From contig CM060732.1 in NCBI GenBank assembly GCA_030704615.1, positions 28,148,001 to 28,212,000 on the forward strand: DNA of 64,000 bases. Direction: 5' to 3'. How positions within the stretch are numbered: the stretch's first letter is position 1; each line of letters opens with the position of its first letter. The stretch comes from Takakia lepidozioides. Its lineage: Eukaryota > Plantae > Bryophyta. Shown here one piece after another: positions 2,860-55,831 of this stretch. The notes under the pieces are model-generated. The model was given only the letters and a program-made list of their open reading frames with translations, searched no databases and was not told the origin of the DNA. Position numbers and translations under genes: made by a program.

Positions 2860-3014
2860 TGTCGTGCGCATACATATCGCTACACAACTACATCACACAC
2901 TAGTATACCACTAGTCCACCACTAGTCTAGCCACTAGTCCAACCACTAGGCTACAACTAGTCAGTCACTAGGCTACCACTATGCTGCCCACTATGGCAGT
3001 CACTAGTCCACACA
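2860..3014 (-). repeat. Terminal repeat 'B' (3' terminus of copy A)
   Basis: TGTCG...CCACACA. Homologous to 19661-19841 and 20172-20371. Built from CACTAG units. Confidence 0.9.
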
Positions 3015-3934: not shown

Positions 3935-3936
3935 GG

Positions 3937-5271: not shown

Positions 5272-5319
5272 CCTCGCCTTGAGCTCTTGAAAAGCTCGTT
5301 CCTGATCATCTTCCCACTG

Positions 5320-17052: not shown

Positions 17053-17552
17053 NNNNNNNNNNNNNNNNNNNNNNNNNNNNNNNNNNNNNNNNNNNNNNNN
17101 NNNNNNNNNNNNNNNNNNNNNNNNNNNNNNNNNNNNNNNNNNNNNNNNNNNNNNNNNNNNNNNNNNNNNNNNNNNNNNNNNNNNNNNNNNNNNNNNNNNN
17201 NNNNNNNNNNNNNNNNNNNNNNNNNNNNNNNNNNNNNNNNNNNNNNNNNNNNNNNNNNNNNNNNNNNNNNNNNNNNNNNNNNNNNNNNNNNNNNNNNNNN
17301 NNNNNNNNNNNNNNNNNNNNNNNNNNNNNNNNNNNNNNNNNNNNNNNNNNNNNNNNNNNNNNNNNNNNNNNNNNNNNNNNNNNNNNNNNNNNNNNNNNNN
17401 NNNNNNNNNNNNNNNNNNNNNNNNNNNNNNNNNNNNNNNNNNNNNNNNNNNNNNNNNNNNNNNNNNNNNNNNNNNNNNNNNNNNNNNNNNNNNNNNNNNN
17501 NNNNNNNNNNNNNNNNNNNNNNNNNNNNNNNNNNNNNNNNNNNNNNNNNNNN
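17053..17552. other. Assembly gap (500 N)
   Basis: Run of N. Confidence 1.
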
Positions 17553-19337
17553 CTCATAAGATGTCTTGGTTGGTGGGGCAGGTTGGTACCCCATGGGCTT
17601 CACCCTGGATTTTTGGGAGGAGTCAGCTTCCTATAGGCCTGGATGGCAGTTAAGGAAGGGCCGACATGTGCAGCTCCCTGTGTGACGTTTATAGGAGGAG
17701 TTTGCGGTTTGCCCATGTGGGCAAGATGCCCACACTAGCAGCATTCACAACTGCAATGACTTGGCCTGGAGAGTTGCTTGAGGGAAACGCTCATTCAGAG
17801 GATGACATACCTCTAGGAGAATATGATGACATGTATGATATGGCAGAGTTGTCTGCCATGGTTGCTCAGACTCCATTGTGGGGCACGAGCAAGGATTTGC
17901 AGCGGGTTGCTGATCGACGGATGCAATAAGCTTGGGTGGAGGCTGTGCTGGTACAGGAGAGAGAGTGGAGTGGAGGAGTGCGGGATTGCACCAGGACCAC
18001 CTCAGTTGTCTCCATTGGACACCACACCTATTGTGTGGCAGTATCCGGATGAAGGCATTTGTCTTCTGGACTTGTTTTGGCGGGATCAGCACCGGATTGG
18101 CTGCTGTGTTACAGGCAGGTGTACAAGTTCGGCGTTACCTGTATGTGGAGAGGGATGAGACTGCACGACACGTTTCACTTCGCCATGTTGCTCAGTTGGT
18201 GCAGCGGTACCCTGAGTTGTTGCCGGTGGCTGCAGTTCGTGGATATCAGCAGGCCTTGCCAGCAGACATTTCGTTGCTGGGGGCGCAGGATTTAGAGCGG
18301 GTTGGCTCCATTGATCTGGTAGTGGCAGGTGGGCCCTGCCAGGGCATTCATCAGCCGGGCATGGCAATGGATTGCGAGACTCGAGGTCGGGTCTGTTTTG
18401 GGAGATGGTGCAGGTTTTGCGCCACTTGCAGCTTCATCAAGCTGTATCTCTAGCATACATCTTGGAGAATGTGCCACTGATGGGCGATTCTCGGGCCAGG
18501 GTGATGGCCAGTGTGCAAGTCCGGTTGTGGCTTAGGTGAGCAGTGTTGCTAGATGCAGCTACAGTAGGGTCACGGGCTCATCATCCACGGCTATGGTGGA
18601 CTAACTTGATACCACCCGCACTGCTCAAGCGTGCATTTGATGGGGTGCAACGGCCAGCACATCTCACAGTGGATAGCATTCTGGACATAAGGAGGCAGTC
18701 TCAGCGTGTGAGACACGATGACCGTTTGCCTTTGGCAGTGGTCAACAAGGTGGGTCAACCTGGAGCAGCATTACCTACACTGCTCAGCTTCCCAGGATCG
18801 CATGCTTTCCGTGATAGTGGACCTGGCCTCCTGTGGGATGCTCAGTTGCAGCAGGTAGTGGAGCCTAATGCTGACAAGCGTGAGCGGACAATGGGTTTTT
18901 ATCACTGGTACCACAGCGGTGTCGTCTCTTTCTGAGGCATCACGTCGTCAGGTGTTGGGGCAAGCAATGGATCTCTATTGCTTGACCTGCATTATCAGCT
19001 TGGCTATGGCTGAGCAACGTAGAGTGCGGAGTACACTTCCCTCGATGGACTCTCTGCCTACCGAGACAGTACATGCAGTGAGTGGGGGCGAGCATGTGAG
19101 GACCACGGGGTGCAGGCATCCATAGCACACGTGGGAGGTGCTCGAGGTTCAGAGGGAGTTGGCAGCCAAGGTGGCGGTGATGGATGAGGTTGGGGATTTT
19201 TCTCGGGTGGAGAAAGTCCTTGAGGATGAGATGATGGGGCAGGCTGAGGCCTTGTCACTGACTGAGCAGGTAGGGAGTACTGCTCAAGAGGTTGCAACAT
19301 AGCAACCACTGGACGCGTCCTCTACCTCTAAGCCCAC
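17553..19337 (+). pseudogene. Inverted fragment of the DNMT-gypsy element (copy C): protease end plus DNMT, frameshifted
   Basis: FGGISTG, GGPCQG, HHPRLWWTNL, and EVAT-TAG-CAACCA at 19300-19308. Confidence 0.88.
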
Positions 19338-19660
19338 TTGTTACAGCCCGCCACAACCTGTCAAAGCCTGTCACAACCCGTCACAACCCCATAGGCCGCA
19401 TGGCACAGCCTGTCACAGCCTGCCACAGCCTATCACAGCCCCTCACAGCCCCACAGGCCATAGGGCACAGCCTGTCACAGCCCGTCACAGCCCCACAGGC
19501 CACTCCTGACAGTTTAGCCATTTCTCCAAGGGGTTTAGCCATGCCAAGCTAGGGTTTGTGTCTCTTGGACTCTAGGCTTCTTTGCACCGAGCTATGGCGG
19601 CTTTGAAGAAATCAGCAAGATATTCTTGCTCTTTCGGCTCCCACACACCACCAATAGTAG
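19338..19660 (-). mobile_element. 5' leader segment of host copy B' (continues at 29526-31032)
   Basis: Matches about 27700-27971 and ends in the GTAG TSD. Confidence 0.75.
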
Positions 19661-20631: not shown

Positions 20632-22110
20632 CTATCCCAAGCAGTGTGGACACAACCAATCTCCGTCAGGAACCTTATCAAGAGGTGGTGTCAAGCATCC
20701 CATATGCCATCCCCTTGAGCATCGATCACACACCAGCACGGTGGCTGCCCCTTTGGCAGACCCACAAAGCATGCACCTCAAACCTGCACGTACCACTGGC
20801 AAGTTTGGATCAACTCTGCCATCAACATTGGGAAGGTGTCATGGCGCAGAATTACGCACATGTCCTTCCAAGTCATGCTATCCCGACCCTCCAAGATCAG
20901 GACTCCTGAGGGCAATACCTCTTGAACCCTCAGAATAACACGCCCTACAGTGACATCCAGGGTCGTAGGAGTAGTCTGCTGCAAATAAACATAGTCACCA
21001 GGGCTAAACCTCCGAACCCCAGGACGATATCCTCCACCACGTATAGTGGCATACCTCAACGATATGGTGCTATGCAATGGCAAGGTTCTCAAAAGCCATG
21101 GGCATGACTTTCTTGAACAACTCTGCATGCTGATCACATGCACGTACCTACACGTCCGGATCATCAACGTTGAGGACTTGAGCAGTGTCCCTACGAATGG
21201 CTACAGGAAAATCCGGCTCTCGGCCAAAGAGAAGGAAATATGGTGAGAAATATGCAAGTGATGCTTGTTTGCTGAACCTGCAGCCCATGGCTAACCGAGG
21301 CACCTGAAGATCCCAATCTCCTAGGTGTCCTTTCTGCAAGCCATACTTGCGCAGACCCTCTTCACCGTCTGAACACTCTCTCTGCCAAGCCATCGGCCTC
21401 AGGATGATCCCGAGAAGTGGTGCGGTGGTATATCAAGGCTTTATCACACAAAGCCTGAAACTCCCCCAAGAACTCTCTCCCTTGGTCCGTGAGTACCTCA
21501 GCTAGAGCACCGAATCGGCTAAGCACACAATCCAAGAATGCATACGCAGCCCCCTCACTAGCCTTGTCGCGCAATGGAACCAACTCAATCCACTTAGAGA
21601 AGTGCTCCACCATCGCCAACACATATCTGTGGTGGCGCATAGTCAGTGGCAATGGTCTTGCGAAGTCAAGACTCCACTTGTAGCCCAATCCCATGATTGG
21701 TAAATGATGCAACTGGGGTGTAGGGGCGTTGAATGAAGCACGCACCATGTCACACACCATGCACCTAGCCACAAACTGTTGCACCTCTGTACGCATACCA
21801 CGCCACCAATACTGCCCCTGCAGTAAATTGTGAGTGCGTCGCACTCCAAAATGCCCCAACCCCTCATGGGCATGCCGCACTAACCGTGCATGCTGTATGG
21901 GGTGAGGCACAATCCTCACCCGACCATCCTCCCATACTTGGAGCAGGTGTATCCCCTCCCACTTGAACCTTTTGGCTCGTTGCAGGATCCGATCCCTCTC
22001 CTTGGCAGTCACAGTGGCTGTCATGTCTCCAGTACGGAGGTAGTCCAACACAGCCGAATCCTCATGTATATCTCTGGTACCACCTGGCTTATCACTAGCC
22101 TCAGGGTCCT
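20632..22110 (-). pseudogene. Integrase plus PHD (copy B), frameshifted
   Basis: HEGLGH..CMVC, WSLDF, LTDQGREF. PHD sequence matches 3275-3420. Confidence 0.9.
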
Positions 22111-22197
22111 TGGTCCAATGTCAGGCTCCCAATTGTCCACCGTAACTACAACCTTAAGTCCAGTGGGCTTAGAGGTAGAGGATGCGTCCAGTGGTTG

Positions 22198-23616
22198 CTA
22201 TGTTGCAACCTCTTGAGCAGTACTCCTTACCTGCTCAGTCAATGACAAGGCCTCATCTTGCCCCATCATCTCATCATCGAGGACTTCCTCAACCTGAGAA
22301 AAATCCCCAGCCTCATCCATCACCGCCACCTTGGCTGCCAACTCCCTCTGAACCTCGAGCACCTCCCACGTGTGCCATGGATGCCTGCACCCCGTGGTCC
22401 TCATATGCTTGCCCCCACTCACTGCCTGTACCGTCTCGGTAGGCAGAGAGACCAGCGAGGGAAGTGCACTCCGCACTCTACGTTGCTCAGCCATAGCCAA
22501 GCTGATAATGGAGGTCAAGCAATTGAGATCCATTGCTTGCCCCAACACCTGACGACGTGCTGCCTCAGAAAGAAATGACACCGCCGTGGTACCAGTGATA
22601 AAACCCATTGCCGGCTCACGCTTGTCAGCATTAGGCTCCACTACCTGCTGCAACTGAGCATCCCACATGAGGCCAGGTCCACAATCCCGGAAAGCATGCG
22701 ATCCTGGGAAGCTGAGCAGTGTAGGTAATGCTGCTCGTGGTTGACCCACCTTGTTGACCACTGCCAAAGGCGAATGGTCATCGTGTCTCATATGCTGAGA
22801 CTGCCTCTCTATGTCCAGAATGCTATCCACTGTGAGATGTACTGGCCGCTGCACCCCATCAAATGCACGCTTGAGCAGTGCGGGTGGTATCAAGTTAGTC
22901 CACCATAGCTGTGGACGATGAGCCCGTGACCCCATTGTAGCTGCATCTAACAACACTGCTAACCCAAGCCACGACTGGACTTGATGCACACTGGCCATCA
23001 CCCTGGCCCGAGAATCGCCCATCAGTGGCACATTTTCCAAGATGTATGTAGGAGATACAGGCTGATGAAGCTGCAAGTGGCGCAAAACCCGCACCATCTC
23101 CCAAAACAGACCCGACCTCGAGTCTCGCAATCCATTGCCATGCCTGGCTGATGAATGCCCTTGGCAGGGCCAACTTGCCACTACCAGATCAATGGAGCCA
23201 ACCCGCTCTAAATCCTGCGCCCCCAACAACGAAATGTCTATTGGCAAGGTCTGCTGATATCCACGAACTGCAGCCACCGGCAACAACTCAGGGAACCGCT
23301 GCACCAACTGAGCAACATGGCGAAATGAAATATGTCGTGCAGTCTCATCCCTCTCCACATACAGGTAACGCCAAACTCGTACACCTGCCTGTAACACAGC
23401 AGCCAATCCGGTGCTGATCCCGCCAAACAAGTCCAGAAGACAAATGCCTTCATCCGGATACTGCCACACAATAGGTGTGGTGTCCAATGGAGACAACTGA
23501 GGTGGTCCTGGTGCAATCCCCGCACTCTCTTCTACTCCTGATGATACAAAAGCCTCCACCCAGGCTTGTTGCACCCGTCGATCAGCAACCCACTGCAATC
23601 CTTGGTCGTGCCCCAC
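22198..23616 (-). CDS. DNMT3-like methyltransferase (copy B)
   Basis: LLDLFGGISTG, SWPCQG, ILENV, AHRPQLWWTNL, LGQAMD. Ends EVAT-TAG-CAACCA. Confidence 0.92.
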   Translation of the reverse strand: MGHDQGLQWVADRRVQQAWVEAFVSSGVEESAGIAPGPPQLSPLDTTPIVWQYPDEGICLLDLFGGISTGLAAVLQAGVRVWRYLYVERDETARHISFRHVAQLVQRFPELLPVAAVRGYQQTLPIDISLLGAQDLERVGSIDLVVASWPCQGHSSARHGNGLRDSRSGLFWEMVRVLRHLQLHQPVSPTYILENVPLMGDSRARVMASVHQVQSWLGLAVLLDAATMGSRAHRPQLWWTNLIPPALLKRAFDGVQRPVHLTVDSILDIERQSQHMRHDDHSPLAVVNKVGQPRAALPTLLSFPGSHAFRDCGPGLMWDAQLQQVVEPNADKREPAMGFITGTTAVSFLSEAARRQVLGQAMDLNCLTSIISLAMAEQRRVRSALPSLVSLPTETVQAVSGGKHMRTTGCRHPWHTWEVLEVQRELAAKVAVMDEAGDFSQVEEVLDDEMMGQDEALSLTEQVRSTAQEVAT

Positions 23617-24962
23617 AATGGAGTCTGAGCAACCATGGCAGGCAACTCTGCCATATCATACATGTCATCCTGTTCTCCTGGAGGTATGTCATCCTCTGAA
23701 TGAGCGTTTCCCTCAAGCAACTCTCCGGGCCAAGTCAGTACAGCTGTAAATGCTGCTAGTGTGGGCATCTTGCCCCGCTGGGCAACCGCAACTCCTCCTA
23801 TAAACGTCACAGGGAGCTGCACACGCCAGCCCTCCCCTGACTGCCATCCAAGCCTATAGGAAGCTAACTCCTCCCAAAAATCCAGGGTGAAGCCCATGGG
23901 GTACAACACTGCCCCACCAACTAGGACATCGTACGAGACTGCGTCTGTCACAATGGCCTTGGCTCGCATCACTGAGCCATCTGTAGGGTGATCCAGCCGT
24001 AGTCTGATAGCCAACTCATGCCGTGTCATGCCCCGAGAATGCTCCGATACTCCCAGGGACGTCTGTATCTGGAAAGGACAAGGCTCCATATCCGCCTTCG
24101 TGAGGCCCAAGCCTGCAATAGCAGCTCTGCCCAACATCAATGGCTGAGCTCCCGAGTCCAACAAGACCCGCAGTGGCCGGTACCTCTTGCCTGCCGGTCC
24201 ATTCAAACAGAAAATGCCACCCTGGTTGTCTAACATGAGAACTCCAGGTGTCACCATGGCGCGCTCAATGGCTGGCCTAGCTGGCAGCTCCATCAACCTG
24301 GCAGCTGCAGCTTGCCATGGCGCCGCCGTGGCAGTCTTGACCCTCAAATCCGAGGATCCCTCCGGTACTACACCTCCCACTATCTCCGCAGAAGATGAAG
24401 TAACCTCCCCACTCTCACAAAGTGTAGCTGCCAGCCTGAACACCTCAGCTGGTTTTACCCCCGGCGTCGCAATCATGGTAGCCGAGAACAATGGAGCCTG
24501 ACACACAGATGTGGCCGCTCCCAGTAACACACTAGCTGCCGTAGCCTTGGCAACACTAGGTAGTGGTGCTACCCGTGTAGCTCTCCCCAATGACGTAATA
24601 ACCTCCACCTCGGTATCAGTCGGGCGAGTACTAGGTGCCATGGATGACGTCGACACTGTCTCCGCCAATGTGAATGACTGAGGAAGCTTGGCCTGACGGC
24701 TTGCCTCCCCACGCTGTGGATCCAACTCCACCTCCACACCTTGTGGCTCAGGAACTTGTGCTGCTCCTCGAGTCACTGCTGCGGCTGACTCCACTTGCAC
24801 TAGTGGTAGTCCTGCCCCGCACATATTGGTAGTGGTAGTGGCACCCCTCATTAGTGGTAGTGCTGCCCCGCACATGAATCCCATGCCTCCCATATCTCCT
24901 CCTTCAGGAGCAGGAGCTGGACCATCCGGCCTTGGAGCCGGTACCACCTGAGATGTGGCCAT
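23532..24962 (-). CDS. Linker plus aspartic protease (copy B)
   Basis: LRVLLDSGAQ. Confidence 0.85.
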   Translation of the reverse strand: MATSQVVPAPRPDGPAPAPEGGDMGGMGFMCGAALPLMRGATTTTNMCGAGLPLVQVESAAAVTRGAAQVPEPQGVEVELDPQRGEASRQAKLPQSFTLAETVSTSSMAPSTRPTDTEVEVITSLGRATRVAPLPSVAKATAASVLLGAATSVCQAPLFSATMIATPGVKPAEVFRLAATLCESGEVTSSSAEIVGGVVPEGSSDLRVKTATAAPWQAAAARLMELPARPAIERAMVTPGVLMLDNQGGIFCLNGPAGKRYRPLRVLLDSGAQPLMLGRAAIAGLGLTKADMEPCPFQIQTSLGVSEHSRGMTRHELAIRLRLDHPTDGSVMRAKAIVTDAVSYDVLVGGAVLYPMGFTLDFWEELASYRLGWQSGEGWRVQLPVTFIGGVAVAQRGKMPTLAAFTAVLTWPGELLEGNAHSEDDIPPGEQDDMYDMAELPAMVAQTPLWGTTKDCSGLLIDGCNKPGWRLLYHQE

Positions 24963-24974
24963 GGCAGCGAGCCT

Positions 24975-26417
24975 CTACTCTAGCTGCTGAAGCCGGTTGG
25001 CCATGCCTTTGTCACCACCCTGACCTCCGCATCCTTGGCCATGTTGAGCTTGCCCTTGGCCTGCACCTCGTGCCTGGCCACCTCGTCCTCTCTGGGCTGC
25101 TCCACCTCGCCCCCGACCACCATTGTTCCCTTGGAACTGGCCTGGGCGCAACTCAGGATGCAAACCATAACACTGGGCTTCTCCATGCCCGTACTTGCCA
25201 CAATGCCCACACAACAACTGTGCAGGCTGTGCATGTGCCGGCCCTTTGCCTCCCTCTGGGCAATCCTTCTTGACATGGGGTCCTCCACATGTCCAGCACA
25301 CCACATCCGCCCGTTGTCGGCCAGCAAATGAAGGGAGAGACCCCTGCATCTGAGGTCCTCTCTGCCCTTCCCTGAGCTTCACCTGAGCCCCCTTGTTGCC
25401 TTGAGCATGTTGAGGTAGTGGTTGGCTAGGAGCATCACTACCCCGTGGTGTCTCCTTAGCAAATCCCACCATGACCACTCGTTCCTCCACCATGTTGAGC
25501 TCTATCCGCTCTGCCAACAAAAACACATTTGCTAAGGTGGGTTGGGCCGCTCGTAGGAGAGTTGCATCCCGCACCCTTCTCCTCAGCTCCTTGTCCAATA
25601 TCCTATACCAGAATTGGACTGCCTGAGCTTCCGTAACCTCTTGGGTTACATTTATCAAGTGCCTCATGCGAGTGAAAACCTCCCTCAAGCTCCCAGTCGG
25701 CTTCCGTTGGAACTTTTGCAAACTCCGCAACTTCTCTGTCCTCACCACTTGGTAGTTCCCTCTCAACTCTTCGAAGAATTCCACAATAGGGTTGAAGGCA
25801 GGCACGGGTACTGGTGCTGGTGCGGTAGTAGCTTGGGTGGACGTCATAGCTATGGTACCACCAGTCCTACTAGTCCCACTGCTGCTTGCTGAAGCAGCCG
25901 GTGCAGCTACTGCCCTCGTGGCTCTAGTGCCCCTAGTGATGGAGACATAGTCGAGTGACCAGTACATTCTCCACACCTCGATCTCAACCTCATGCCCCCG
26001 CCTGAACTCATGGTAATCATCTATAGGCGGCCCCTCAAGGTGCTGAAACAGCCCCTTCCATGCCATGAAAGGCGTAAATAGTTGTGGATTGCGCATTTGC
26101 TGCAAATCACACCAACTATCAAACTCTTGGATAAAATCATCCAACTCGATGGTGCCCACCACCCCAGAGTACCTTCGTGGCCCCTTGGTAGCTCCATACA
26201 TCTCCTCCATTGTGTCCCACAACAATGGCAAGGAAACAACTTGCACCGCCGGTATGAGTCATCCTGATTCACAATCCAAATCAGAACCTTTCGTAGAAGA
26301 CACAGGAGGTGAAGGTGGCCTAAACCGCACACCTCGTCTCGTGTACCCACTAGTATCACTAGTGCTCGAACCGGCACTGTCCCCAGCAACTAGTGGCACC
26401 TCCGTGTTGACACTCAA
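24975..26417 (-). CDS. Gag (copy B) with two zinc knuckles
   Basis: CWTCGGPHVKKDC and CGHCGKYGHGEAQC. The stop at 24975 is CAG in copy A. Confidence 0.85.
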
Positions 26418-27815: not shown

Positions 27816-29198
27816 CATGACAGTTTAGCCATTTCTCCAAGGGGTTTAGCCACGCCAAGCTAGGGTTTGTGTCTCTTGGACTCTAGGCTTCTTTGCACCG
27901 AGCTATGGCGGCTGTGAAGAAATCAGCAAGGTATTCTTGCTCTTTCGGCTCCCACACACCATCAATAGTAGCCCTAAGCCATGAGGAAGATGGTTGCCAC
28001 AAACCAAGCCTTCTTTCTCACTTAGACTCCCCAAACACGCCACTAAACTCAATGGCAAACAACCGAGCCTTGTTGGTTTCCAGCCCTATGAGCACTCATT
28101 CAAGCGTTTCCCTTGGCCATAGCATCTGTCTTAGAGCCTATTCTAGCCCCTTACACCTGCCACTTCAAGAGCCATGCTCTATCTAGGCTTGAGGTTGAAA
28201 CCCCAACTCAGAACACGCTCTACAAGTGTCGGACTGTCACATAAGAGCAGATCAGCCCCTTACCTTCTCTTCTAGTTCTCTAAAGCTTGAAAACAAAAGC
28301 CCAATGGACTGAAGGCATGCTCCACACATGCCCCACTCTCACCACCAGAGAATCAGCCCATTTGCTTTCTTTCTTGTACCCACCAACCTGAAAATACACG
28401 CTTCAGCGGGCTGGAAGCATGCTCCACACATGCCCTATAGGGAAACTAGCCCCTTCCTTCCTTCCTTTCTTGCACTCCCAAACCTGAAAGTACAAGCCTT
28501 CAACAGGCTGAAAGCATGCTCCACACATGCATTGCTCTCACATAAGGGAAGTCAGCCCTTCCCTCTTCCTTGCTTGCCTCCAAGCTTGAAGATGGAAGCT
28601 TCAATGAGCTGAATACATGCTCCACACATGCAACCTCTTCACACAAGGGGTATCAGGCCCCTATTTTGGCTCCTTAGCTCCTTGATGCTCTCTAAGACAA
28701 GACTAAGCACTCCACAGCCCTTGCCAAGCTCCTGAAACCCTAAGGCTTACATTTCCAGCCACAAGACACTCCTCTTGTGGTGCAAGAGCTCTTATTCCAA
28801 GCTCTGAAACCCTAGGTGCACATTCCATGGCCTTGCCGCAACACTTAGCTCCTATTCTAGCCCTGCTCTTGCCATGACAAGAGCCCTCTCAATGCTGAAG
28901 CTCGAGATTGAAACCCAATCTCAACATACTCCACAAAGTGCACTGATTTGCCCCAAGCCAAATCAGCCCTTTCGCTTGGTCTTGTAATCCTGCAGCATGG
29001 TGCTTTCATCTCTGAAGCTGAAGATCGAATGCCAAGGTCTACCACCTCATAACCCACATCGCCTCCGCTTCTAACAAGCAAGAGCTCCACGGTGCTCCTT
29101 GCATAACAACCTGGTTTCTCTCATTCTCAAGCAAAAACCACAAGTGCTACAACTAACTCGTATCTGGCACTCACAGATACGAGCTCATCTTTCTCGGG

Positions 29199-29525
29199 TG
29201 ATAAAGATGAAGAATACAAGCACAAGCTCATGCGAGCTCACAAAGCTGAAGCATAAACTCATGCATATATAACCTCATCACTCAAATACGAGTCAAGCCA
29301 AGTACACCCCACGCCATGGGGAATCCACACTACGGCGCCATAGCTAGGCGCGGTGAGGCTCAACTCGAGAAAGATGAGCCTCTCGCGCTTGCCGTGAAGA
29401 TAACCACTCCAGGGCCTAAATCTGCCTTGACCCCTGGATTGACACTTAGGCCAATCCCAAATATCAATATGTAAAAGCTAGCTATTTCCTAGCTAGTTTC
29501 ACACTAGTGGTACAATAACTTGACA
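29199..29525 (-). repeat. Terminal repeat A1 (5' end of copy B)
   Basis: Homologous to A2; flanked by the GTAG TSD. Confidence 0.9.
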
Positions 29526-31032
29526 GTAGCCCTAAGCCATGAGGAAGATGGTTGCCACAAACCAAGCCTTCTTTCTCACTTAGACTCCCCAAACACGCCA
29601 CTAAACTCAATGGCAAACAACCAAGCCTTGCTGGTTTCCAGCCCTTGTGAGCACTCATTCAAGCGTTTTCCTTGGCCATAGCATCTGTCTTAGAGCCTAT
29701 TCTAGCCCCCTACACCTGCCACTTCAAGAGCCATGCTCTATCTAGGTTTGAGGTTGAAACCCCACCTCACATATGCCCTACAAGTGCTTTTCTTTCACCC
29801 AAGTGGGAACCAGCCCTAGCCCTTCCATTCTAGCTCTCTAAAGCTTGAAAACAAAAGCCCAATGGACTGAAGGCATGCTCCACACATGCCCCACTCTCAC
29901 CACAAGAGAATCAGCCCCTTTGCTTCCTTTCTTACACCCACCAACCTAAAAAATACACGCTTCAGCGGGCTGGAAGCATGCTCCACACATGCCCTACAGG
30001 GAAACCAGCCCCTTCCTTCCTTTCTTGCACTCCCAAACCTGAAAGTACAAGCCTTCAACAGGCTGAAAGCATGCTCCACACATGCATTGCTCTCACATAA
30101 GGGAAGTCAGCCCTTCCCTCTTCCTTGCTTGCCCTCCAACTTGAAGATGAAAGCTTCAATGAGCTGAATACATGCTCCACACATGCAACCTCTTCACACA
30201 AGAGGTATCAGGCCCATATCTTGGCTCCTTGTCTCATTGATGCTCTCTAAGACAAGACTAAGCACTCCACAGCCTTTGTCAAGCTCCTGAAACCCTAAGG
30301 CTTACATTTCCAGCCACAAGACACTCCTCTTGTGGTGCAAGAGCTCTTCTTCCAAGCTCTGAAACCCTAGGTGCACATTCCATTGTCTTGCCACACCTCT
30401 TAGCTCCTATTCCAGCCCTGCTCTTGCCATGATAAGAGCCCTCTCAATGCTGAAGCTCGAGATTGAAACCCAATCTCAACATACTCCACAAAGTGCACTG
30501 CAGCATGGTGCTTTCATCTCTGAAGCTGAAGATCGAATGCCAAGGTCTACCACCTCGTAACCCACATCGCCTCCATTTCTAACAACCAAGAGCTTCACGG
30601 TGCTCCTTGCATAACAACCTGGTTTCTCTCATTCTCAAGCAAAAACCACAAGTGCTACAACTAACTCGTATCTGGCACTCACAGATACGAGCTCATCTTT
30701 CTCGAGTGATAAAGATGAAGAATACAAGCACAAGCTCATGCGAGCTCACAAAGCTGAAGCATAAACTCATGCATATATAACCTCATCACTCAAATACAAG
30801 TCAAGCCAAGTGCACCCCACGCCATGGGGAATCCACACTACGGCACCATAGCTAGCGCGGTGAGGCTCAACTCGAGAAAGATGAGCCTCCCGCGCTTGCC
30901 GTGAAGATAACCACTCTAGGGCCTAAATCTGCCTTGACCCCTGGATTGACACTTGGGCCAATCCCAAATGTCAGTATGTAAAAACTAGCTATTTCTTAGC
31001 TAGTTTCACACTAGTGGTCAAATAACTTGACA
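29526..31032 (-). mobile_element. 5' end of host copy B' (repeat A at 30707-31032 plus leader)
   Basis: Direct repeat of 27968-29525. Confidence 0.8.
30691..30706 (-). promoter_or_regulatory. Putative self-priming PBS
   Basis: Perfect 16-nt reverse complement of 30871-30886 inside repeat A. No TGG tRNA-type PBS at this position. Confidence 0.7.
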
Positions 31033-32369
31033 TTTCAAATAACCTTCTCTTTTTGCTGAATATTTGTGGAGTCTAGCTTCCCTTTCATCACTCATGTCCC
31101 ATATCTTTCATATCTTCAATGAGGCAATAACCAAAACTCTCTGCTGTAGTATCTCTCGTATATGCCTAGATATCTTTCAAGCTTTAACTTGAACGATACG
31201 GGTTTGCATTTGGTTTTTCCCTTTCTTTTGCGGCTGGGGTCTTCTTCGAAACCATATGGCAAGCACGTCTGAAAAGTTGTTCTTGGTGTAAGTGATCCAC
31301 AAGATATCCTTAGGAATCCAATTCTTTACTAGTTCAAGTTCTTCATGCATGTGAGTGTAAACATTCACCTTCCATTCCTCCCAGCTTTCAAACTCCACTC
31401 GTTTAATGGATAGCAACTCTATCACATAAACGAGTGTTGGTAACCAACTTGCTCTCCCTCTACAGGCCACTTGATAAATCTTTATCACTCCTTTCTCCAG
31501 ACCCCACTCTGGATCAACATCATGCACTCTCTTAAGGATGTTTTCTTTGCAACCGTCTGGCAATTCCAATAACCTCTGAAAGAATTGTTTGGACAATCTT
31601 TCTTTCTCAGTTTCACAGGGAATTTGATTCATATCAAATTCCTTGATTCATATCAAATTCCTTGATTCTCCATTCACCATGATCCCACTAGATGCTCACA
31701 TCTGGTTGTTCTTGACTCAGTCCCCAGTATGGTCGCCGAATGTCGAGCGGCTTTTACTCACCCATCCCTTAGCTATCCAAGGTGGAAACTCCAAGATAGA
31801 AGAGTTGGAAATCTCTAAGTACTCAGCCCGCTTAGAACAATTAGTCATGACCTACAACTAGTGTATCATGGGGGTGCTTTCTATTTGTATTATTTCTCGC
31901 ATTCATGTTAGCAAGTTACCTTATTGTCTATGATTAAGTATCAGATTGCTTCTACATTCTACCATGTTCCATCTACTCAAGCATTCATTCTACAGCTTCA
32001 CTCGTATCTCTCTACACGGTGTGTGTATGAAATAAGAATCATATTAATATCTATCATGTATCAGGCCGAAGCCATGGTGTCTCTAATCTGCTTTACAGTG
32101 CATCTCTACAGCTTGCATGAATCAAGCATCATCTCATCATATCTCCTCCTCTGTGTAATCTCCATCCATGTGCTCCAAGATCGTGCTCTCTGCCTGATCT
32201 CCTCAAGTGATGACCAAGAAGTGCTCCAAGAAGTGACCCCCTCCATGTCGCTACTCTGCATATTCTACCTGCAAGCTGTTCTAACCGCCTAACTAACTAA
32301 CTGTCATCCAAGACAGAATGCACGTTCCCTCTGCAGATGTCGTTCCCACACAGTCGTTCCTTGTGAACG

Positions 32370-32635
32370 CTGTGACGGGTTGTGCCAAGCTGTGTCGGGC
32401 TGTGACTGTGCCGAGCTGTGACTGGCAGTGTCGCCCTGTGTCGGCCTGTGATAGACTGTGATAGGTTGTGACTGACTGTGATAGGCTGTGTAAGGTTGTG
32501 TGTCAGGCTGTGACTGAGTGTGATAGATTGTGATAGGTTGTGTAAGGCTGTGTCAGGCTGTGTAAGGCTGTAACAAGCTGTGTCAGGCTGTGTCAGGCTG
32601 CGACAGACTATGTAAGCCTGTGACTAACTGTGTGA
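32370..32635. repeat. GGCTGTG array
   Basis: Repeated GGCTGTG(A/T) units at about 10-bp spacing. Confidence 0.8.
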
Positions 32636-32799
32636 GCCTGCCTACCACCCCTAAGGCCTGTGTCTGTCACCCCTAAGGCCTCTGTTGGTCTGAGTCTACC
32701 ATCCGTAAGTCTCCACAAAACTAAGGGTACCCTACAGAACCCGTAAAACTGTCTAAATCCCATATAGAACTCTAACAGGAAAGTATAAAGGTTTCTCCC

Positions 32800-33745
32800 G
32801 GACGGAAATGCGGTGTCGCACCGCATTTCCGTTCTGAAAAGTATAAAGGTTTCCCCTGGACAAAAATGCAGTGCTGCATTTCCGTTGCACTATTTGATTA
32901 CTTACATGGATAACGGAAATGCGGTACCGCATTTCCGTTCCACTGTTACATGCCGTACATGTTGGACGGAAATGCGGCGCCGCATTTCCGTTCTAGAAAT
33001 TCGGAAGGTACACCTGGAACGGAAATGTAACACCGTATTTCCCTTCCACTGTTACATCCCTTACTTGTTGGACGGAAATGCGGTGCCGCATTTCCGTTGC
33101 ACTGTTACATGCCTTACTAGTTGGTCGGAAATGCTGCTCCGCATTTCCGTCCAGTAAAGTACAAATGTACACCGCGGACGGAAATGCGGTGCCGTATTTC
33201 TGATCCACAGTCACAGGGTTTACATGTTGGACGGAAATGCGGCGTCGCATTTCCGTTCCGGACGATTCAAAGGTAGACTTCGGACGGAAATGCGGTGCCG
33301 CATTTCCGTCCAAATGATACATGTCTTACTTGTTGGACGGAAATGCGGCGCATCAGTTCTTGTTGTGCCTCGGTTCTTGTTGTTCTCCATGTGTTGTCTT
33401 CCTTGTCTGCCTGAATTCTGCAAGGTTTTCAATCAAACTTACGTCCAATTCAACGTAACATGTGATTTCTTACTGTCTCACTGTTCACAATTTTGAAACA
33501 TTGGGGACGGAATGCGGCATCACATTTCCGTCCTCTGCATTCCTTAATAAAAGCCCGGACGGAAATGCGGCACCGTATTTCCGTTCCTGCCTATCGAAGG
33601 TGTCCCAGTCGACGGAAATGCGGTGTCGTTTTTCTGTTCCACCATGTCATCCTTGTCCCATTCGACCGAAATGCGATACCGTATTTCCGTTCCACCATGT
33701 CATCCTTGTCCCATTCGACCGAAATGCGATACCGTATTTCCGTTC
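32800..33745. repeat. 53-bp-period array: 16 copies of a 30-bp palindrome with 23-bp variable spacers
   Basis: Consensus GGACGGAAATGCGG-YR-CCGCATTTCCGTTC. Starts at 32800, 32858, 32911, 32964, 33017, 33070, 33123, 33176, 33229, 33282, 33335 (truncated), 33505, 33557, 33610, 33663, 33716. Confidence 0.93.
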
Positions 33746-34012
33746 CACCATCATCACCACAACCTTAGCAAAACCTGAGAGAAACGCTCTCCATGCGGGA
33801 TCCTCCCTAAGAGAATCCGAGCACATTTCCGGGTAGAATACAACCCTAATACAACTAACTAACAACCCAAATAAAATTCAAACTAATTGCCAATATCTGG
33901 AAGGTTGAAAAGGTGTTGATTTGGGATAAACGGAAGAGCAATTATCCCGGGGCCCATCGAAATCTTACCACTTTTGTGTCCCAATGCCTTAGACCACGGG
34001 AAAATGTTCACA

Positions 34013-34900
34013 TTGAAAGCGGCGAGGGTTGAAGGAGATAGCCCTCATTGTAGCCTTTTTTGTTTCAAGCATGATGGAGAAAAAAAAACGGTCCTCGTGT
34101 ATGGCAGAAATGCTGCTTAAGCTCACGGGAACCCCCAAGTGCCCCAAGTGTCTGATCGCCCAGTCTCTCGCAAAGGCCATGTCAACCTTTGGTAGCAAGA
34201 TTCTTTTTTCTCCTTATCAGACACTCGGATGTTCAGCTGAGCAACATCCACGTTGATCAGTTGGTGGGCTTTGCTCATAGCCAACTACAGCGCTGAGACT
34301 TCATGCTGCAATTCGGATATGTTGTCCTCAGAGTCACCCACCAGAGTGAGGTCTGTCATCCCGGACATCCCACTACTACCACTGCCATGGATAGGTGGGA
34401 GAAAAGGCATGATCCACCGGCAAGGACCCCCAGAGAGAGCTGTGGGGAGCTGTGTTGGCAGTCCCCCACAAATTACCCCAACCCAGAAACTGGGCTTGAT
34501 CCGCCAGAAGGACCTGTTCCAAAGGAAGGTTATGCATGCAGAGTGGCAGGAAAACTACTGGGCTCGGACTGCATGCGATTCCTCGCAGCTCCTCTAAAAG
34601 AGCGATTGTTGAGTGGGCCCATTGAATCCGAATCAGACGGAGGGGACCAGGTGGCAGAACTAGCAGACGAGTTGGAGAAGTCTAAAAAGGCAACAAGAGA
34701 TGCTAGAGGTGGTGGATTTACAGAATTCAATTGAGGCCGCCGCTAGGGGTTGTCGGGACGTCAGGACCTTGAATGAAAAGAAAGGAAGGATGAGGCTAAT
34801 GCATGGGAAGGAGCTTGCACGACAATCGAGGGAAAAAGACCAGAAAAGTTGTCTTCCTGGCGGCAAGGAGTCAAGAGAGCTCCTAGGTGAACAAACACAT
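34013..34900 (-). mobile_element. Probable L1-type LINE ORF1 remnant
   Basis: FARDWAIRHLGHLGV...RFFFSI resembles the N-terminal region of plant L1 ORF1; degenerate. Confidence 0.35.
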
Positions 34901-35938
34901 AATTAAGCCTCAAAAGGTGGTCGGGAAGGATGAAGGAAGAGTGTTCATCACAAAAAAACTTAGCAATGGTTCTTCGCCAAAAAGAGAAAAACCTTGATGG
35001 GGGACGAAGCGTCTAGGCTGGAGCATGAGAACCGGTGCATCGACTCATGTAAGTTAGACAGCAAGAACAAAACACGGGACTCAGGGAGGCTGAAGTGAAG
35101 GTGGGAGGGGATGGCCAGGAAACACCGAAAGCTGTTGGACCTTCACTCTCTCACCGCATAACATGGAAGCTCCGGAACGCCTCCATCTTTTTTTCTTTTT
35201 TATTAGGAAAAAACAGTAAAAGAAATTCTGACCCTTCCAATGGCCATAAAAGATTAGAGCTAAATATTCCTTCATTGCTTAGAGGTTGATTATTTCGTGG
35301 AATTGCATCATAATTAGCTTTATGATTCTAGTGACCTATACCGAATCTGGAATTTGACAGCGAAATAGGTCACTAGAATTTAGCCCTAATCTTTTATGCA
35401 AGGGAACGAGATTTCTAGTGACTATTACAGCAGGTTCGATGCCCGCTCACCTGCCGCTCGGCCGTTCCCTATTACTTCAAAAACAAAATAAAAAAAATAA
35501 AAAAGAAAGATAGGCAGCAAAACTGCGCCTTCATGGCAAATGTAAGGTTATTTTTGGCTTTGTCCCGCAAGGGATAGAGGCATTGCGGAGACGTAAAAAC
35601 CTACGGGTTTTTTTTCTTTGTATTTTCAGGGAGCTAGACCTGGCGGAATGTCAGGGCAACAGTGAGCGGGGGATCTTACGCGTAATGTCCCCTGGGAGAT
35701 TACACATAAGGCCCCGTGGGAGATTACGCATGCCATCTTTTCCGTACAATGTCATCTTTTATGCTATATTCCACAGTCTAAGCTGTCCACAACGAAAAGA
35801 AACGGGAAAGAAACCCTATGTCTTTACACGCAGTGTACCTCGGGCAGGTACCTTGGTATTCCTGTTGTGACCTCGGGCTGCGCCCTTGGTCACTCCCCTC
35901 ACACCGCGGTATACCCTCCGGTGGGGGACTTACCCTAT

Positions 35939-36078
35939 ACATCTTGCCTAGGGGGAGAACTAGGCTTACCCATTTAGCCTAGTATGTGGAGGGTTGATGG
36001 GCATTTTTCATGAAGCCGTGGAAAAAGTATAAAACAACGACCCCAAAATCACCCGAAGGAAAGAGCAAGGACAGAGCC
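35939..36078. repeat. Dispersed ~140-bp repeat (second copy at 56418-56557)
   Basis: ACATCTTGCCTAGGGGGAGAACTAGG...GGACAGAGCCT at both loci. Confidence 0.85.
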
Positions 36079-37889
36079 TTCCCTGTTCTCTAAAATTGTT
36101 TTTAAAAAGAAAATGGCTAAGTGTCGAGACCGGCTACCGGTTGCAGCCGGTCTGACATGAGCTTGCTCACGCTCAGCGGCGGGCATGGTAGACTTGTGGT
36201 GCACACGAAGGTCCCACTCCAGACGCATGCCCCTGTCCTTTCGCTCGGGTCGTGCAGCGGATTCAAGGTCCGGGCTGTGGAGCTACAAACGGCATCCCCC
36301 TTGGCAATGCGCAGAGGACGGAGCTCTTGCATACGGTGGCGATGGCGCCTTCAGGGTTGCCATTCAAGTTAGGTGATAACACGAAATACTTCGCGGTTTG
36401 CTGTTTTCGGGTCGCTGTATTGTATGTGTGCGACGTCGGATCCAGGCTCGGAATTGTCTTTTGCGCAATTCAGCATAAACGAATCTACTCGTGGCAAAGA
36501 AGCAAGAAAGCGCACGAGATCGTTACGCCAGCCCGATAATATGTATACCTTGTGTATAGGTCAACGCAGGAGCATGCACCGCTGGCAGCAGTTGTTTAAA
36601 GATACTTCACAATGGTGGGACATTTGCCTTGACAAGGTGAGCTTTCTTCATTTAGGATGAGAAAGGGAGTTTGACGGATCTCTGGTATGATCGTATTTTG
36701 TAGACTGGATTGTACCGCTGTTGAGTGAAGTCAGAATCGCACTTGCTCTGGAAAAACTTCTTTTCTGTCCGAGGTTGTTCCTCCGTAGCAGGGCATGACA
36801 GTAGGATGCGCAATGGATTTTCCCTGGAGTTTGCGAGGTACTTGGAGACTGTCGCTGCTCAGCTGCTCCCTGGGCATTTTCACAGACCACTCCAAAATCT
36901 CCAGACTACAGACATAAGCTGGTTTAGCATCTGTGTAAGTTTGGTCAGGTTCGAATGTTCCTAATTGTGTACAGTCCAATGGAGCCCAAAGTGAATGTTG
37001 TTGAAAGACCACTAGCACTCCTCGAGAAGGGAACTTGTCAAAATGTTGATTCTGTTGGATTTTTGGGCACAAAGGTCTATTGTAGAGCATGGAGCAGAGC
37101 TGGTGCGAGTTTCTTAAAGATCCTTCTCAATGGTGGGACAAACCCAAGCACAAGGTATGGCTTTCTTCAATGTGAAGAAGTTTGTCCATCCTGCTCTTCC
37201 TGTTAGTATCATGATTTGGTATTTTCTCTGGCGCTTGCAAGGTCCTTGGGAGGGTCAGCTTGGTCTTAGGAGGCCGAGTTTATATCTATGGCTGCTCAGC
37301 TGCACCGTGGTGGTTCTCCTCACAGACCAATCCAACATCACATGACTACAGACACAAGCAGCACGCACAAGAGGTCCTTTTGGACTGATGGTCTGTTGAA
37401 TCCTCCATGGTTGGAAGGAAAGCTGGCTGCCATGACTCAAGGTCAAGGACAACGAGGTAAGGTCAACCTTCCATCAACACATTTCAGCCTGTTTTGCCAC
37501 CATATCAGAGTCATCCCCAATTTTTCGTGTTGAATTCTGCAAGTTAGCTCATTGGGTGGATCTATGGTGGTTTGGATTCATTTTGACATGTTACTGCCAA
37601 TCTGGCAACAGGAGAGCGTCCCAAAACAGATAACAGAGACCAGGTGAAGCTTTGGAAGGAGTATTATCCGACCCCGGTCAATGCTGAGACGATCAAGGCA
37701 AAAAGGTGATGCCTGTTAGATTTCAGAGAGAAGCAAACGCAATTCAGCATAGGAACCAGTGTGTGATGAAATAGGGTTGGGGTGTTTGCCAGAACAAATC
37801 TAGGCTGTCATTGTCACCTGCTAGCAGCAAGGCGAGGATGTATGCATGCTTTGTGCAGAGGCAGGGATGCCTGAAGGATCTGGGATAGA

Positions 37890-40523
37890 GTGTGGGTCCA
37901 GATTCATCCAAGAGGGCCGGGTATCAAGCACAAGGTTACGTATGATTCCCTGTGGATCAATAGCTACAAGAAACCTGCATGGGTAGAAGGTCAACTGGAA
38001 GCAGCAGCAGCAGTGGCAGAGTTGATAAAATCAGGCGCCTTGACCCTGACCACAGCTTGCAAAAGAGGACCAAGAGAAGGAGTCCTCAATGCCTCTTCTG
38101 GCACTTCTCGGCATGTAAGGATGCTGTGTGAGGCAGGCCGACTGAATGAGGCTCTACAGATTTTAAACCAAGGAGGCATTACAGCAGATTCAGATACTTA
38201 TGTCTGTCTCTTGCATAAGTGCATCAAGATGAAAGGCCTGGGAGCTGGAAAGCAGGTGCATGCTCACATTATCCAAAGTGGATTCAAACCAAACATTTTC
38301 CTAAACAACACCCTTGTCAACATGTATGTTAAGTGCGGGAGCATCATGGATGCTCACCAAGTGTTCAACAGAATGCCTCAACGAGGTTTGATCACGTGGA
38401 ATATAATGATGGCAGGATTTACCCAGCATGGGTTTGATAGGAATGCTTTGGAGACATATGAGCAAATGCTGCGGGAAGGGATGAAACCCAACCACATCAC
38501 GTTTGTTTGCATTTGCAATGCATGTGCGAGTCTGGCAGCCTTGCAAAAGGGCAAAGAGGTCCATGGTGACATTGTCAAAGCTGGAATTGTACCAGATGTC
38601 ATTCTGAACAGTACCCTCGTGGATATGTATGCCAAATGTGGGTGCATCGAGGATGCAAAGGGAGTGTTCGACAATATGGCTGAACGAAATGTGGTGTCGT
38701 GGAGCGCGATGATTGCCGGATATGCAAAGCAGGGGTGCGGGATGCAGGCTTTGGAGACCTATGAGCTAATGGTGCAGGAAGGAGTGAAGCCCAACCACAT
38801 CACATTTGTTTGTGTTTGCAATGCGTGTGCGAACCTGGCAGCCCTGGAAAAGGGCAAAGAGGTCCATGGTGACATTGTCAAAGCCGGAATTGTAGCAGAT
38901 GTTGTTCTGAACACTGCTCTGATGAACATGTATGCCAAATGTGGGAGCATGGAGAGTGCAAAGGGAGTGTTTGACAATATGGCTGAACGAGATGTGGTGT
39001 CTTGGACTGCGATGATAGCAGGATATGCACAGCAGGAGCGCGAGATGGAGGCTTTGGAGACCTATGAGCAAATGATGAGGGAAGGGGTGAAGCCTGACCA
39101 CATCACGTTCGTTTGCGTTTGCAACGCATGTGCGAGCCTGGCAGCCCTGGAAAAGGGCAAAGAGGTCCATGGTGACATCATCAAAGCTGGAATTGTACCA
39201 GATGTCATTTTGAACAGTACCCTCGTGGACATGTATACCAAATGTGGGTGCATCGAGGATGCAAAGGGAGTGTTCGACAATATGGCTGAACGAGATGGGG
39301 TGTCTTGGAATGCGATGATTGCAGGATATGCACAGCAGGGACATGGGATGGAGGCTTTGGAGACCTATGAGCAAATGATGAGGGAAGGGGTGAAGCCTGA
39401 CCACATCACGTTTGTTTGCGTTTGCAATGCATGTGCGAGCCTGGCAGCCCTGGAAAAGGGTAAAGAGGTCCATGGTGACATTGTCAACGCTGGAATTATA
39501 CCAAATGTCATTTTGAACAGTGCGCTCGTGGACATGTATGCCAAATGTGGGTCCATCAAGGATGCAAAGGGAGTGTTTGACAATATGGTCGAACGAAATG
39601 TGGTGTCGTGGAGTGCAATGATCGCAGGATATGCCCAGCAAGGGCGCGGGATGGAGGCTTTGGAGACCTATGAGCAAATGGTGCGAGAAGGGGTGGAGCC
39701 GGACAGTATCACATTTTTATGTGTTCTCTCTGCATGCAGCCATGTTGGCCTACTGTATGAAGGAAGACGATACTTCGATTCCCTGAGTCAAGATCATGGT
39801 GTCACTCCGACAGTAAAGCACTTTGGCTGCATGGTGGACCTTCTTGGACGTGCGGGGCGATTGGATGAGGCAGAGGACCTGATTAATAAAATGCCAATCA
39901 AACCAGACGCTGTGGTGTGGAAGGCCTTACTTGGTGCCTGCAGAATCCATGGCAATGTGGAGATGGCTGAACGTGCGGCAACATCTATTCTCAAGTGGGA
40001 TGAACAGGACGCCGCGTCTTACGTGTTACTATCAAACATCTATGCCACAGCTGGCAGGTGGGACGATAGTGCAAAGGTGAGAAAAATGATGAAAGTCAGA
40101 GGGATTAGAAAGGAGCTAGGTCGCTGCTCCATTGAGGTTGGCAACAGGCTGCACACCTTTGTTGTAGATGACAAATTGCATCCCAAAACTAAGGAAATCC
40201 ATGCTGAGCTGAGAAGATTGTCTGGGCAGATGAAGGAGGCAGGGTATGTGTCGGACACACGCTTTGTATCGCATGATGTCGGGGAGGAGCAAAAGAAATT
40301 TTCTCTTTGCTACCACAGTGAGAAGCTGGCCATTGGTTTTGGGCTGATCTGCACGGCCCCGAGGACACCTCTCCGTCTCGTCAAGAATCTTCGGATGTGT
40401 GGTGACTGCCACACCTCCACCAAGTTCATCTCAAAGATTGTTGGCCGAGCAATTGTTGTACGGGATGCCAACCGCTTTCACCACTTTGAAGATGGGGTTT
40501 GTTCTTGTGAGGATTACCGGTGA
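37890..40523 (+). CDS. PLS-class PPR protein with E and DYW deaminase domains (organellar RNA editing factor); true start uncertain
   Basis: 101-aa P-L-S triplets, WKALLGACRIH, HSEKLA, CGDCH, HHFEDGVCSCEDYR. Confidence 0.95.
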   Translation: MWVQIHPRGPGIKHKVTYDSLWINSYKKPAWVEGQLEAAAAVAELIKSGALTLTTACKRGPREGVLNASSGTSRHVRMLCEAGRLNEALQILNQGGITADSDTYVCLLHKCIKMKGLGAGKQVHAHIIQSGFKPNIFLNNTLVNMYVKCGSIMDAHQVFNRMPQRGLITWNIMMAGFTQHGFDRNALETYEQMLREGMKPNHITFVCICNACASLAALQKGKEVHGDIVKAGIVPDVILNSTLVDMYAKCGCIEDAKGVFDNMAERNVVSWSAMIAGYAKQGCGMQALETYELMVQEGVKPNHITFVCVCNACANLAALEKGKEVHGDIVKAGIVADVVLNTALMNMYAKCGSMESAKGVFDNMAERDVVSWTAMIAGYAQQEREMEALETYEQMMREGVKPDHITFVCVCNACASLAALEKGKEVHGDIIKAGIVPDVILNSTLVDMYTKCGCIEDAKGVFDNMAERDGVSWNAMIAGYAQQGHGMEALETYEQMMREGVKPDHITFVCVCNACASLAALEKGKEVHGDIVNAGIIPNVILNSALVDMYAKCGSIKDAKGVFDNMVERNVVSWSAMIAGYAQQGRGMEALETYEQMVREGVEPDSITFLCVLSACSHVGLLYEGRRYFDSLSQDHGVTPTVKHFGCMVDLLGRAGRLDEAEDLINKMPIKPDAVVWKALLGACRIHGNVEMAERAATSILKWDEQDAASYVLLSNIYATAGRWDDSAKVRKMMKVRGIRKELGRCSIEVGNRLHTFVVDDKLHPKTKEIHAELRRLSGQMKEAGYVSDTRFVSHDVGEEQKKFSLCYHSEKLAIGFGLICTAPRTPLRLVKNLRMCGDCHTSTKFISKIVGRAIVVRDANRFHHFEDGVCSCEDYR

Positions 40524-49570: not shown

Positions 49571-49913
49571 TAAATGATTAAATAAATTAGAAAAATGAGG
49601 TTAAACTAGAAATAAAACTTTTTTTGGCTGGAAAAAAAACCCTGAGTCCTAATGGTGAATTAATTTTTTTTAAATAAATAAATTTTAGAACATACTCCTT
49701 CAAAGATGTAGCAAGAATGTATACATGATGACTCAAGAATTAGAATAGAGTTTGAGATCCACCCGTCAAACTCAGTTCTTAAACATTTTAAGAAAAGTAA
49801 GATGCCTCATATATCACTATAGCAAGAAGGACAAAAAATCACATGAGAGAGAGGAGGAGGAGCATTACCTACAAGGAGCTCAAGTGAGGGAAGAGACACA
49901 GCTTGTGAAGCCT

Positions 49914-50367
49914 TAAAACAAGCCTGAAGCATATACTCCTTTCCTCTCAAGAAGCAAGGTTTCACAACAAAGGGGCGAGCGGAAAGAGCAAGCAACGTGC
50001 AAGAGGAGGATCAGACACACGGATCTGACACAAAGCAGCTCTCATCCAAAGCTTGTACACCAAAAATCACATATACACTAACACCCGAGTACACCGCCCT
50101 GACCTTGTGTCAAGGCGCCGTCTTTATACAAAAGCCCTAGCTTTAGTGGCCCGCCGCGTGGCGAGGCGTCACAAGCCAAGGCCCACGGCACCACCTTGTT
50201 ACCCTAGATCTGATGAAGGGCCAGGATCGAGCCACCAACTAACCCTAACCTAGATATCATTGTAACGGTTTAACGGCTTTATACGCCAAAAAAATATACT
50301 ATGGATGTGTATCGCCGTTTTGGATGAAACGGGCCATTTCTAGGCTAAGCAAACATGAGGCTTTACA
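49914..50367 (-). repeat. G2 repeat A2
   Basis: Highly similar to 55375-55831. Confidence 0.92.
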
Positions 50368-55356: not shown

Positions 55357-55374
55357 TACCCGGCGTCTCCACCA
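55357..55374 (-). promoter_or_regulatory. G2 PBS, tRNA-Ala-like
   Basis: Minus strand TGGTGGAGACGCCGGGTA, complementary to a ...GUCUCCACCA tRNA-Ala 3' end. Confidence 0.8.
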
Positions 55375-55831
55375 TAAAACAAGCCTGAAGCATATACTCC
55401 TTTCCTCTCAAGAAGCAAGGTTTCACAACAAAGGGGCGAGCGGAAAGAGCAAGCAACGCGCGAGAGGAGGATCAACACGGATCTGACACAAAGCAGCTCT
55501 CAGCCAAAGCTTGTACACCAAAAATCACATATACACTAACACCCGAGTACACCGCCCTGACCTTGTGTCAGGGCGCCGTCTTTATACAAAAGCCCTAGCT
55601 TTAGTGGCCCGCTGCGTGGCGAGGCGTCACAAGCCAAGGCCCACGGCGCCGCCTTGTTACCCTAGATCTGATGAAGGGCCAGGATCGAGCCACCAGCCAA
55701 AACTAACCCTAACCTAGATATCATTGTAACGGTTTAACGGTTTTATACGCCAAAAAAATATACTATGGATGTGTATCGCCGTTTTGGATGAAACGTGCCA
55801 TTTCTAAGCTAAGCAAATATGGGGCTTTACA
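55375..55831 (-). repeat. G2 repeat A1
   Basis: Direct repeat of 49914-50367. Confidence 0.92.

Follow-up and report, generated by a model that had tools for sequence, protein, structure and literature searches.

A 53-bp-phased palindrome array on an abundant repeated element of Takakia lepidozioides, a probable set of sites for a dimeric DNA-binding protein

What does a row of palindromes, set at an almost invariant interval and separated by spacers of unlike sequence, do in a plant genome? Such a row lies in the stretch of Takakia lepidozioides DNA analyzed here (64 kb of contig CM060732.1, hereafter the window), and a sequence-only reading had likened it to a CRISPR array. We conclude that it is probably a cis-acting row of sites, putatively bound by a dimeric DNA-binding protein, on an abundant repeated element.

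The repeating unit of the array is a palindromic core, ACGGAAATGCGG-nn-CCGCATTTCCGT, which presents two 12-bp half-sites head to head. Sixteen copies lie in two blocks; the 64-kb window contains no further cores elsewhere and no second copy of the array. Block 1 (32802..33351) holds 11 cores, starting at 32802, 32860, 32913, 32966, 33019, 33072, 33125, 33178, 33231, 33284, and 33337, of which the first carries five extra bases in its centre and the last consists of the left arm only. Block 2 (33506..33752) holds five, starting at 33506, 33559, 33612, 33665, and 33718. Measured arm to arm, the period is 53 bp in 14 of 14 within-block intervals, equivalent to 5.05 helical turns at 10.5 bp, and TRF reported period-53 arrays together with periods of 106 and 159. 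Ten copies match the core with three or fewer mismatches, and no match at all arose in 100 dinucleotide shuffles of the window, so that the earlier description of 16 repeats in two blocks with a nearly invariant 53-bp period holds. The dimensions given with it, a 30-bp palindrome and a 23-bp spacer, need adjustment: the strict palindrome is 26 bp and the spacer 27 bp, and figures near 30 and 23 are recovered by counting the shared GG/TCC flanks. The array is also a CpG island, with a CpG observed/expected ratio of 1.4 compared with 0.4–0.5 in the flanks. Between the blocks lies a T-rich gap of about 150 bp (33352..33505) that belongs to the element and exists as variants in other copies; contigs of other copies cross 33369, and the segment 33375–33445 is found in variant forms. 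A CACTA-like terminal word at 33361 (one mismatch) was rejected as an element end, since contigs cross it and the gap varies among copies, and the gap contains no terminal inverted repeat.

The spacers record how the array grew. All 10 spacers of block 1 fall into two families, six in A and four in B, arranged as B A A B A A B A B A. Computed on the inner 21 bases, identity is 0.71 for A-A, 0.57 for B-B, and 0.23 for A-B (24 pairs), the last comparable to shuffled spacers (0.26). A core-less B-type spacer precedes the first core (32778..32801) and shares 19 of 21 positions with the first unit's spacer. The sequence-only reading had noted that some spacers are related, three of them beginning with CACTGTTACAT (at 32913, 33019, and 33072) and block 2 closing with two identical full spacers; this kinship proves wider, extending to every block 1 spacer. 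Its observation that spacers diverge in sequence and not in length was likewise borne out, A and B showing chance identity and no length difference. The identical block 2 type resembles the reverse complement of A (11.5 versus 7.2 matches; 0 of 1,000 shuffles), in one of 12 comparisons made. A shows no reverse-complement relation to B (p 0.68), and the best match of any spacer to the rest of the window is 17 of 21. Because the two families recur in a repeating order and are joined by an inverted-A type, we conclude that the array was built up from a few ancestral units, A and B, which were duplicated in tandem and at least once inverted.

Through this growth the cores stayed alike and the spacers did not: the cores of A units and B units are 0.89 identical, against the chance-level 0.23 of their spacers. 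The core changes present in this copy, counted with the exception of one shifted core and one half core, are C>T or G>A in 19 of 26 cases, which is typical of the decay of methylated DNA after insertion; differences among the A spacers are transversions in 16 of 20 cases and therefore reflect older drift. Spacer length in other copies had been proposed as the check on these ideas. Other copies were sampled as contigs from four public runs, all of one sample, and they carry different spacer sequences between the same cores. Among the matches listed (12 of 451), seven of eight distinct core-to-core joints keep the 53-bp period; the joints are individually weak, with a short side of only 20–30 letters at 80% likeness. 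The eighth joint, also among the matches listed, measures 32 bp, about three helical turns, and is a counterpoint to the site-array reading in that it breaks the 53-bp rule. The similarity of the cores, the chance-level spacers, and the lack of compensatory pairing together point to selection on the DNA motif and its phase rather than on an RNA hairpin. Given the core and spacer identities and the 53-bp joints, dimeric binding sites, as the sequence-only reading had suggested from a constraint on motif and phase, are the best reading.

Could the same pattern arise without function? In a neutral minisatellite within a transposon, strand switching or gene conversion would homogenize the cores and in-register unequal exchange would maintain their spacing. 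The periods of 106 and 159, the identical last units, and the duplicated spacer with 19 of 21 matches are signs of ongoing slippage, and tandem arrays of no known function are common in Retand elements according to the available portion of PMC11963269. The palindrome arms, too, could be homogenized by repair or conversion in the absence of selection. Yet the A and B spacers have diverged to 0.23 identity and remain equal in length. When substitutions reach saturation, indels normally come along. Self-correction of the cores, moreover, is not evident, as the cores of this copy are imperfect and their changes uncompensated. We regard a neutral origin as unlikely.

We consider it rather improbable that the array works as RNA, in the form of a multi-hairpin transcript for packaging, dimerization, or small-RNA production. 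Block 1 folds at −286 kcal/mol (z = −17.9), but the strength of this fold stems from the palindromes, and any palindrome array would fold in this way. Palindrome regions of Sireviruses are hairpin-capable siRNA hotspots in the accessible text of PMC4728375, and pairing in the present array is kept as G-U in ten cells. Set against this, a change on both sides occurs in only one of 11 pairs, a value equaled in 206 of 500 shuffles (13 distinct rows), so that covariation does not exceed that of shuffles and the earlier suggestion of selection for a multi-hairpin RNA finds no support. The arms are only two bases apart, such that a loop would need the stem to be opened, and hairpins leave the fixed five-turn period unexplained. 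No Rfam family matched in the window.

If the array is a row of protein-binding sites, to what does it belong? It sits at the end of a 2.7-kb remnant of a repeated element (31033..33752), a decaying copy truncated on both sides. The interval from 31.0 to 33.75 kb is matched by thousands of contigs and that from 33.8 to 35.2 kb by one. In run X1, summed contig depth, which is not equal to copy number, ranges from 740 to 3e5 over the remnant as opposed to 37.6 for the single contig at 33722–35288. From these data we infer a family of hundreds to thousands of copies, and the abundance, the dispersion of variants, and the context make a transposable element likely.

The left truncation is produced by an LTR-like repeat of 1.5 kb on the minus strand (29525..31032), which has a tandem twin at 27967–29525. 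These repeats belong to a gypsy nest that interrupts the element and are no part of the array; the earlier placement of the array inside a putative Ogre-like LTR finds no support, as there is no second array copy and the only nearby LTR ends at 31032. The repeats at 27967–31032 themselves follow this general grammar in a second array: each contains four units, at 93–103 bp, in which a GCATG-CTCCACA-CATGC dyad is kept and the rest drifts. Elsewhere in the window, Ty3/gypsy-type copies lie at 3275–8851 and 21362–26258 (minus strand), with a partial inverted copy at 17553–19338 and a 500-N assembly gap inside the retrotransposon nest at 17053–17552. Between protease and reverse transcriptase these copies encode a C5 cytosine DNA methyltransferase domain (PF00145, 4e-13), and their integrase is followed by a PHD finger; a keyword search of the literature returned no paper that combined all five of its terms. 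Within the remnant, a 10-bp CTGTG/CACAG minisatellite (32369..32641) is 65–72% like a repeat in the leader of the neighboring gypsy element, in the opposite orientation relative to the ORF.

That ORF, on the minus strand (31033..31647), is an orphan remnant that spans 205 codons, is interrupted by two in-frame stops, and leaves 155 codons open; it is cut at 31033 by the LTR. Its length is reached by 17 of 1,000 shuffles, and in other copies it continues in frame past 31033 at a loose contig end; it is likely the element's own gene. The array stands upstream of it, and the ORF lies 1.1 kb downstream of the array. Searches of Pfam and of sequences returned no homologs, and viral contigs gave no match. 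A single-sequence structural model was unreliable (pLDDT 50); with it, Foldseek returned nothing at E ≤ 0.001, and the best VIA-align hit (Z 6.0 over 66 residues) is not meaningful. We considered a spliced minus-strand gene, based on AG sites near 32270 and 31858 and a depth dip, and dropped it because the would-be intron is rich in A and has no pyrimidine tract, and because contig depth cannot serve to rank the parts. We also considered reading the plus strand, with an LTR that would end near 31860; its primer-site look-alike is poor. No TATA box was found, and a promoter and terminator scan, bacterial in design, gave results at chance level.

A search of the remnant for features that would class the host element found neither a terminal inverted repeat nor an LTR, and no primer site, polypurine tract, reverse transcriptase, or transposase. 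The region 32300–34300, in which this copy is truncated at 33752, contains no exact CACTA terminal word; Ty1/copia gag-pol, LTRs, and multiple polypurine tracts were not found in the remnant and the right flank of this truncated copy, and no pol was found in the array-bearing remnant. An LTR-retrotransposon host is possible. Assuming a mobile element, we would give a retrotransposon leader or extra-ORF linker slightly less than an even chance and a CACTA-type subterminal region a substantial chance also short of even, leaving a small share for anything else.

Palindromic site arrays are a layout already known from plant transposons, and only the strict period and the host family are unusual here; the comparisons below refer to those parts of the cited sources that were available. 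Elements of the Sirevirus group (SIRE, Ty1/copia) carry 8–32 copies of CGG-CCG palindromes, placed in the LTRs and ahead of an extra ORF, in CpG islands (PMC2829016), and such regions, whose flanks diverge, are siRNA hotspots (PMC4728375). A CGG-CCG palindrome in at least eight copies within a CpG island is what we find in Takakia (16 cores; CpG observed/expected 1.4). CGG-CCG is nested twice in the core, whose centre resembles the Inga and Sorghum motifs (Table 3 of PMC2829016), and the cores are clustered upstream of an ORF, here the minus-strand orphan, and better conserved than their flanks. The dyad, however, is longer (26 bp), a strict 53-bp period was not found in those portions of the Sirevirus descriptions, and no copia gag-pol, LTR, or polypurine tract was found in the truncated remnant.

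CACTA (En/Spm) elements offer another parallel. In soybean Tgmt*, one end holds 12 palindromes within 732 bp (PMC2613891), and Arabidopsis TnpA needs dense motif clusters, which it binds and demethylates at Spm ends (bioRxiv 10.64898/2026.08.24.746577). As in those elements, a short motif is reiterated in direct and inverted orientation as a run of palindromes, about a dozen head-to-head motif pairs occupy 0.6–0.7 kb, the 12-bp half-site has GC-rich and AT-rich parts, and the array ends a repeated stretch and adjoins a poorly conserved gene. The unit of soybean Tgm1 is reportedly a 54-bp palindrome. The window has a CACTA end of its own (51846–52400, CACTATAGCAAATT) with the same grammar, namely eight palindromic units, TGCGACG-N6-CGTCGCA, at periods of 46–71 bp, with a conserved core and unlike spacers. 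The half-site of this end resembles the Arabidopsis TnpA-Spm1 motif CCVTCGCAAA as given in the available text (bioRxiv 10.64898/2026.08.24.746577); DUF4218 transposase pieces adjoin it at 52725–53695 (minus strand). A 460-bp direct repeat pair (49911–50367 and 55372–55831, 95%) brackets this CACTA piece together with gypsy integrase remnants and likely represents the LTRs of an element that received the CACTA insertion. The array differs from CACTA ends in its motif, which is not that of the window's CACTA end, and in the 150-bp gap of element sequence that splits it; neither a CACTA terminal repeat nor TnpD was found in this truncated copy, which has lost most of the element.

Two further systems share single features. 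Targets of VANC multiply through tandem repeat formation in non-coding transposon parts and differ between related families (PMC5735166, in part), much as a short motif, here putatively protein-bound, has been multiplied by tandem repeats; VANC motifs, however, are 8–9 bp long and not described as palindromes in the accessible sections of that source (PMC5735166), and no Mutator transposase or VANC homolog is present here. Retand elements are reported only in eudicots and monocots, with antisense ORFs, mostly bearing TRP28, beside tandem arrays (available text of PMC11963269), and the extra ORFs of plant LTR elements mostly have no known domains (PMC6317226, in part). An extra, poorly conserved ORF adjoining tandem arrays in an abundant element thus recalls the region between pol and the 3′ LTR of Retand/Tat elements as described there, but TRP28 was not detected. 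By analogy, the array would work as the Sirevirus, CACTA, VANC, and Retand arrays do; its membership in any one of these families is at most putative. No published description of this array was found in the open-access literature searched.

How might a row of such sites act? One dimer would bind each palindrome, and the five-turn phase would bring every dimer to the same face of the helix, permitting cooperative binding. The resulting row may keep the CpG-rich region active and drive the element's gene or genes, an activating or anti-silencing outcome that would parallel a proposal for the Sirevirus repeated motifs; alternatively, it might assemble a transposition complex, as TnpA does on CACTA ends. 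The binder may be the product of the orphan minus-strand ORF or a host factor. A more specific version appears doubtful to us: that a novel plant element, neither CACTA nor of a known LTR lineage, uses its own orphan protein or a ParB/Srx-like partner to bind a whole-turn palindrome array (53 bp, with a 32-bp variant), on which a cooperative filament would shield the element from silencing or drive its mobilization.

A related possibility, which we hold to be very unlikely, is that the array is an origin- or partition-like region of the iteron, baculovirus-hr, or parS type from an episomal or virus-like element that integrated; its reader might be a ParB-like protein encoded at 395–2860. Helically phased dyad arrays are typical of replicons. 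The gene at 395–2860 (plus strand) is spliced, contains a DGNHR motif, and is cut near 2860, where the retrotransposon nest that also cuts the array's element has its other edge; it has two unnamed homologs at 41% identity and ParB/Srx-, DndB-, and DUF3723-like neighbors by features (0.89–0.93, the ParB/Srx-like ones at 0.92). The flanks at 2860 and 31033, however, share no common target duplication, and left of 31033 the other copies carry sequence missing from the window; we found no link between the array's element and this gene in the flanks or in the contigs of other copies. The gene has no Pfam ParB match, its structural model failed (pLDDT 39), and neither the core nor the orphan ORF is matched in viral contigs. 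The exact core pattern also returned no match in metagenome contigs or prokaryotic genomes.

A CRISPR-type memory of spacers captured from invaders, as the label CRISPR-like in the sequence-only reading might suggest, is hardly credible: palindromic repeats and partly unlike spacers at constant spacing do recall prokaryotic CRISPR, but the spacers, far from being acquired fragments, are homologous to one another and repeat in tandem at a higher order (all 10 of block 1 in two families in periodic order, with those from other copies, among the matches listed, resembling A and B variants by eye), the array sits in a eukaryotic repeat, and no Cas family was found in six frames of 31.0–32.05 kb and 33.76–35.26 kb or in 18 selected ORFs and exons.

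The array thus lends no support to CRISPR-type immunity in plants. Read as a row of putative dimer sites, it offers a clean example of palindromic cis-element clusters built by tandem duplication in plant transposons. Spacer drift can be told apart unusually well from motif and phase, which makes the array a neat test of whether helical phasing is important to regulators encoded by transposons, TnpA and VANC among them. Were the orphan ORF to encode the binder, it would represent a new family of sequence-specific DNA-binding proteins from plants.

Beyond the array, the interval 35244–36148 consists of low-copy repeats with a hairpin at about 35325–35380, and a part of it (35939–36079) is 94% like 56418–56557. 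An intronless gene at 37875–40523 (plus strand) encodes a PLS-class PPR protein with E and DYW domains, which together with the CACTA transposase piece marks the window as plant DNA, and its four near-identical 303-bp triplets (88% matches) suggest a recent internal duplication.
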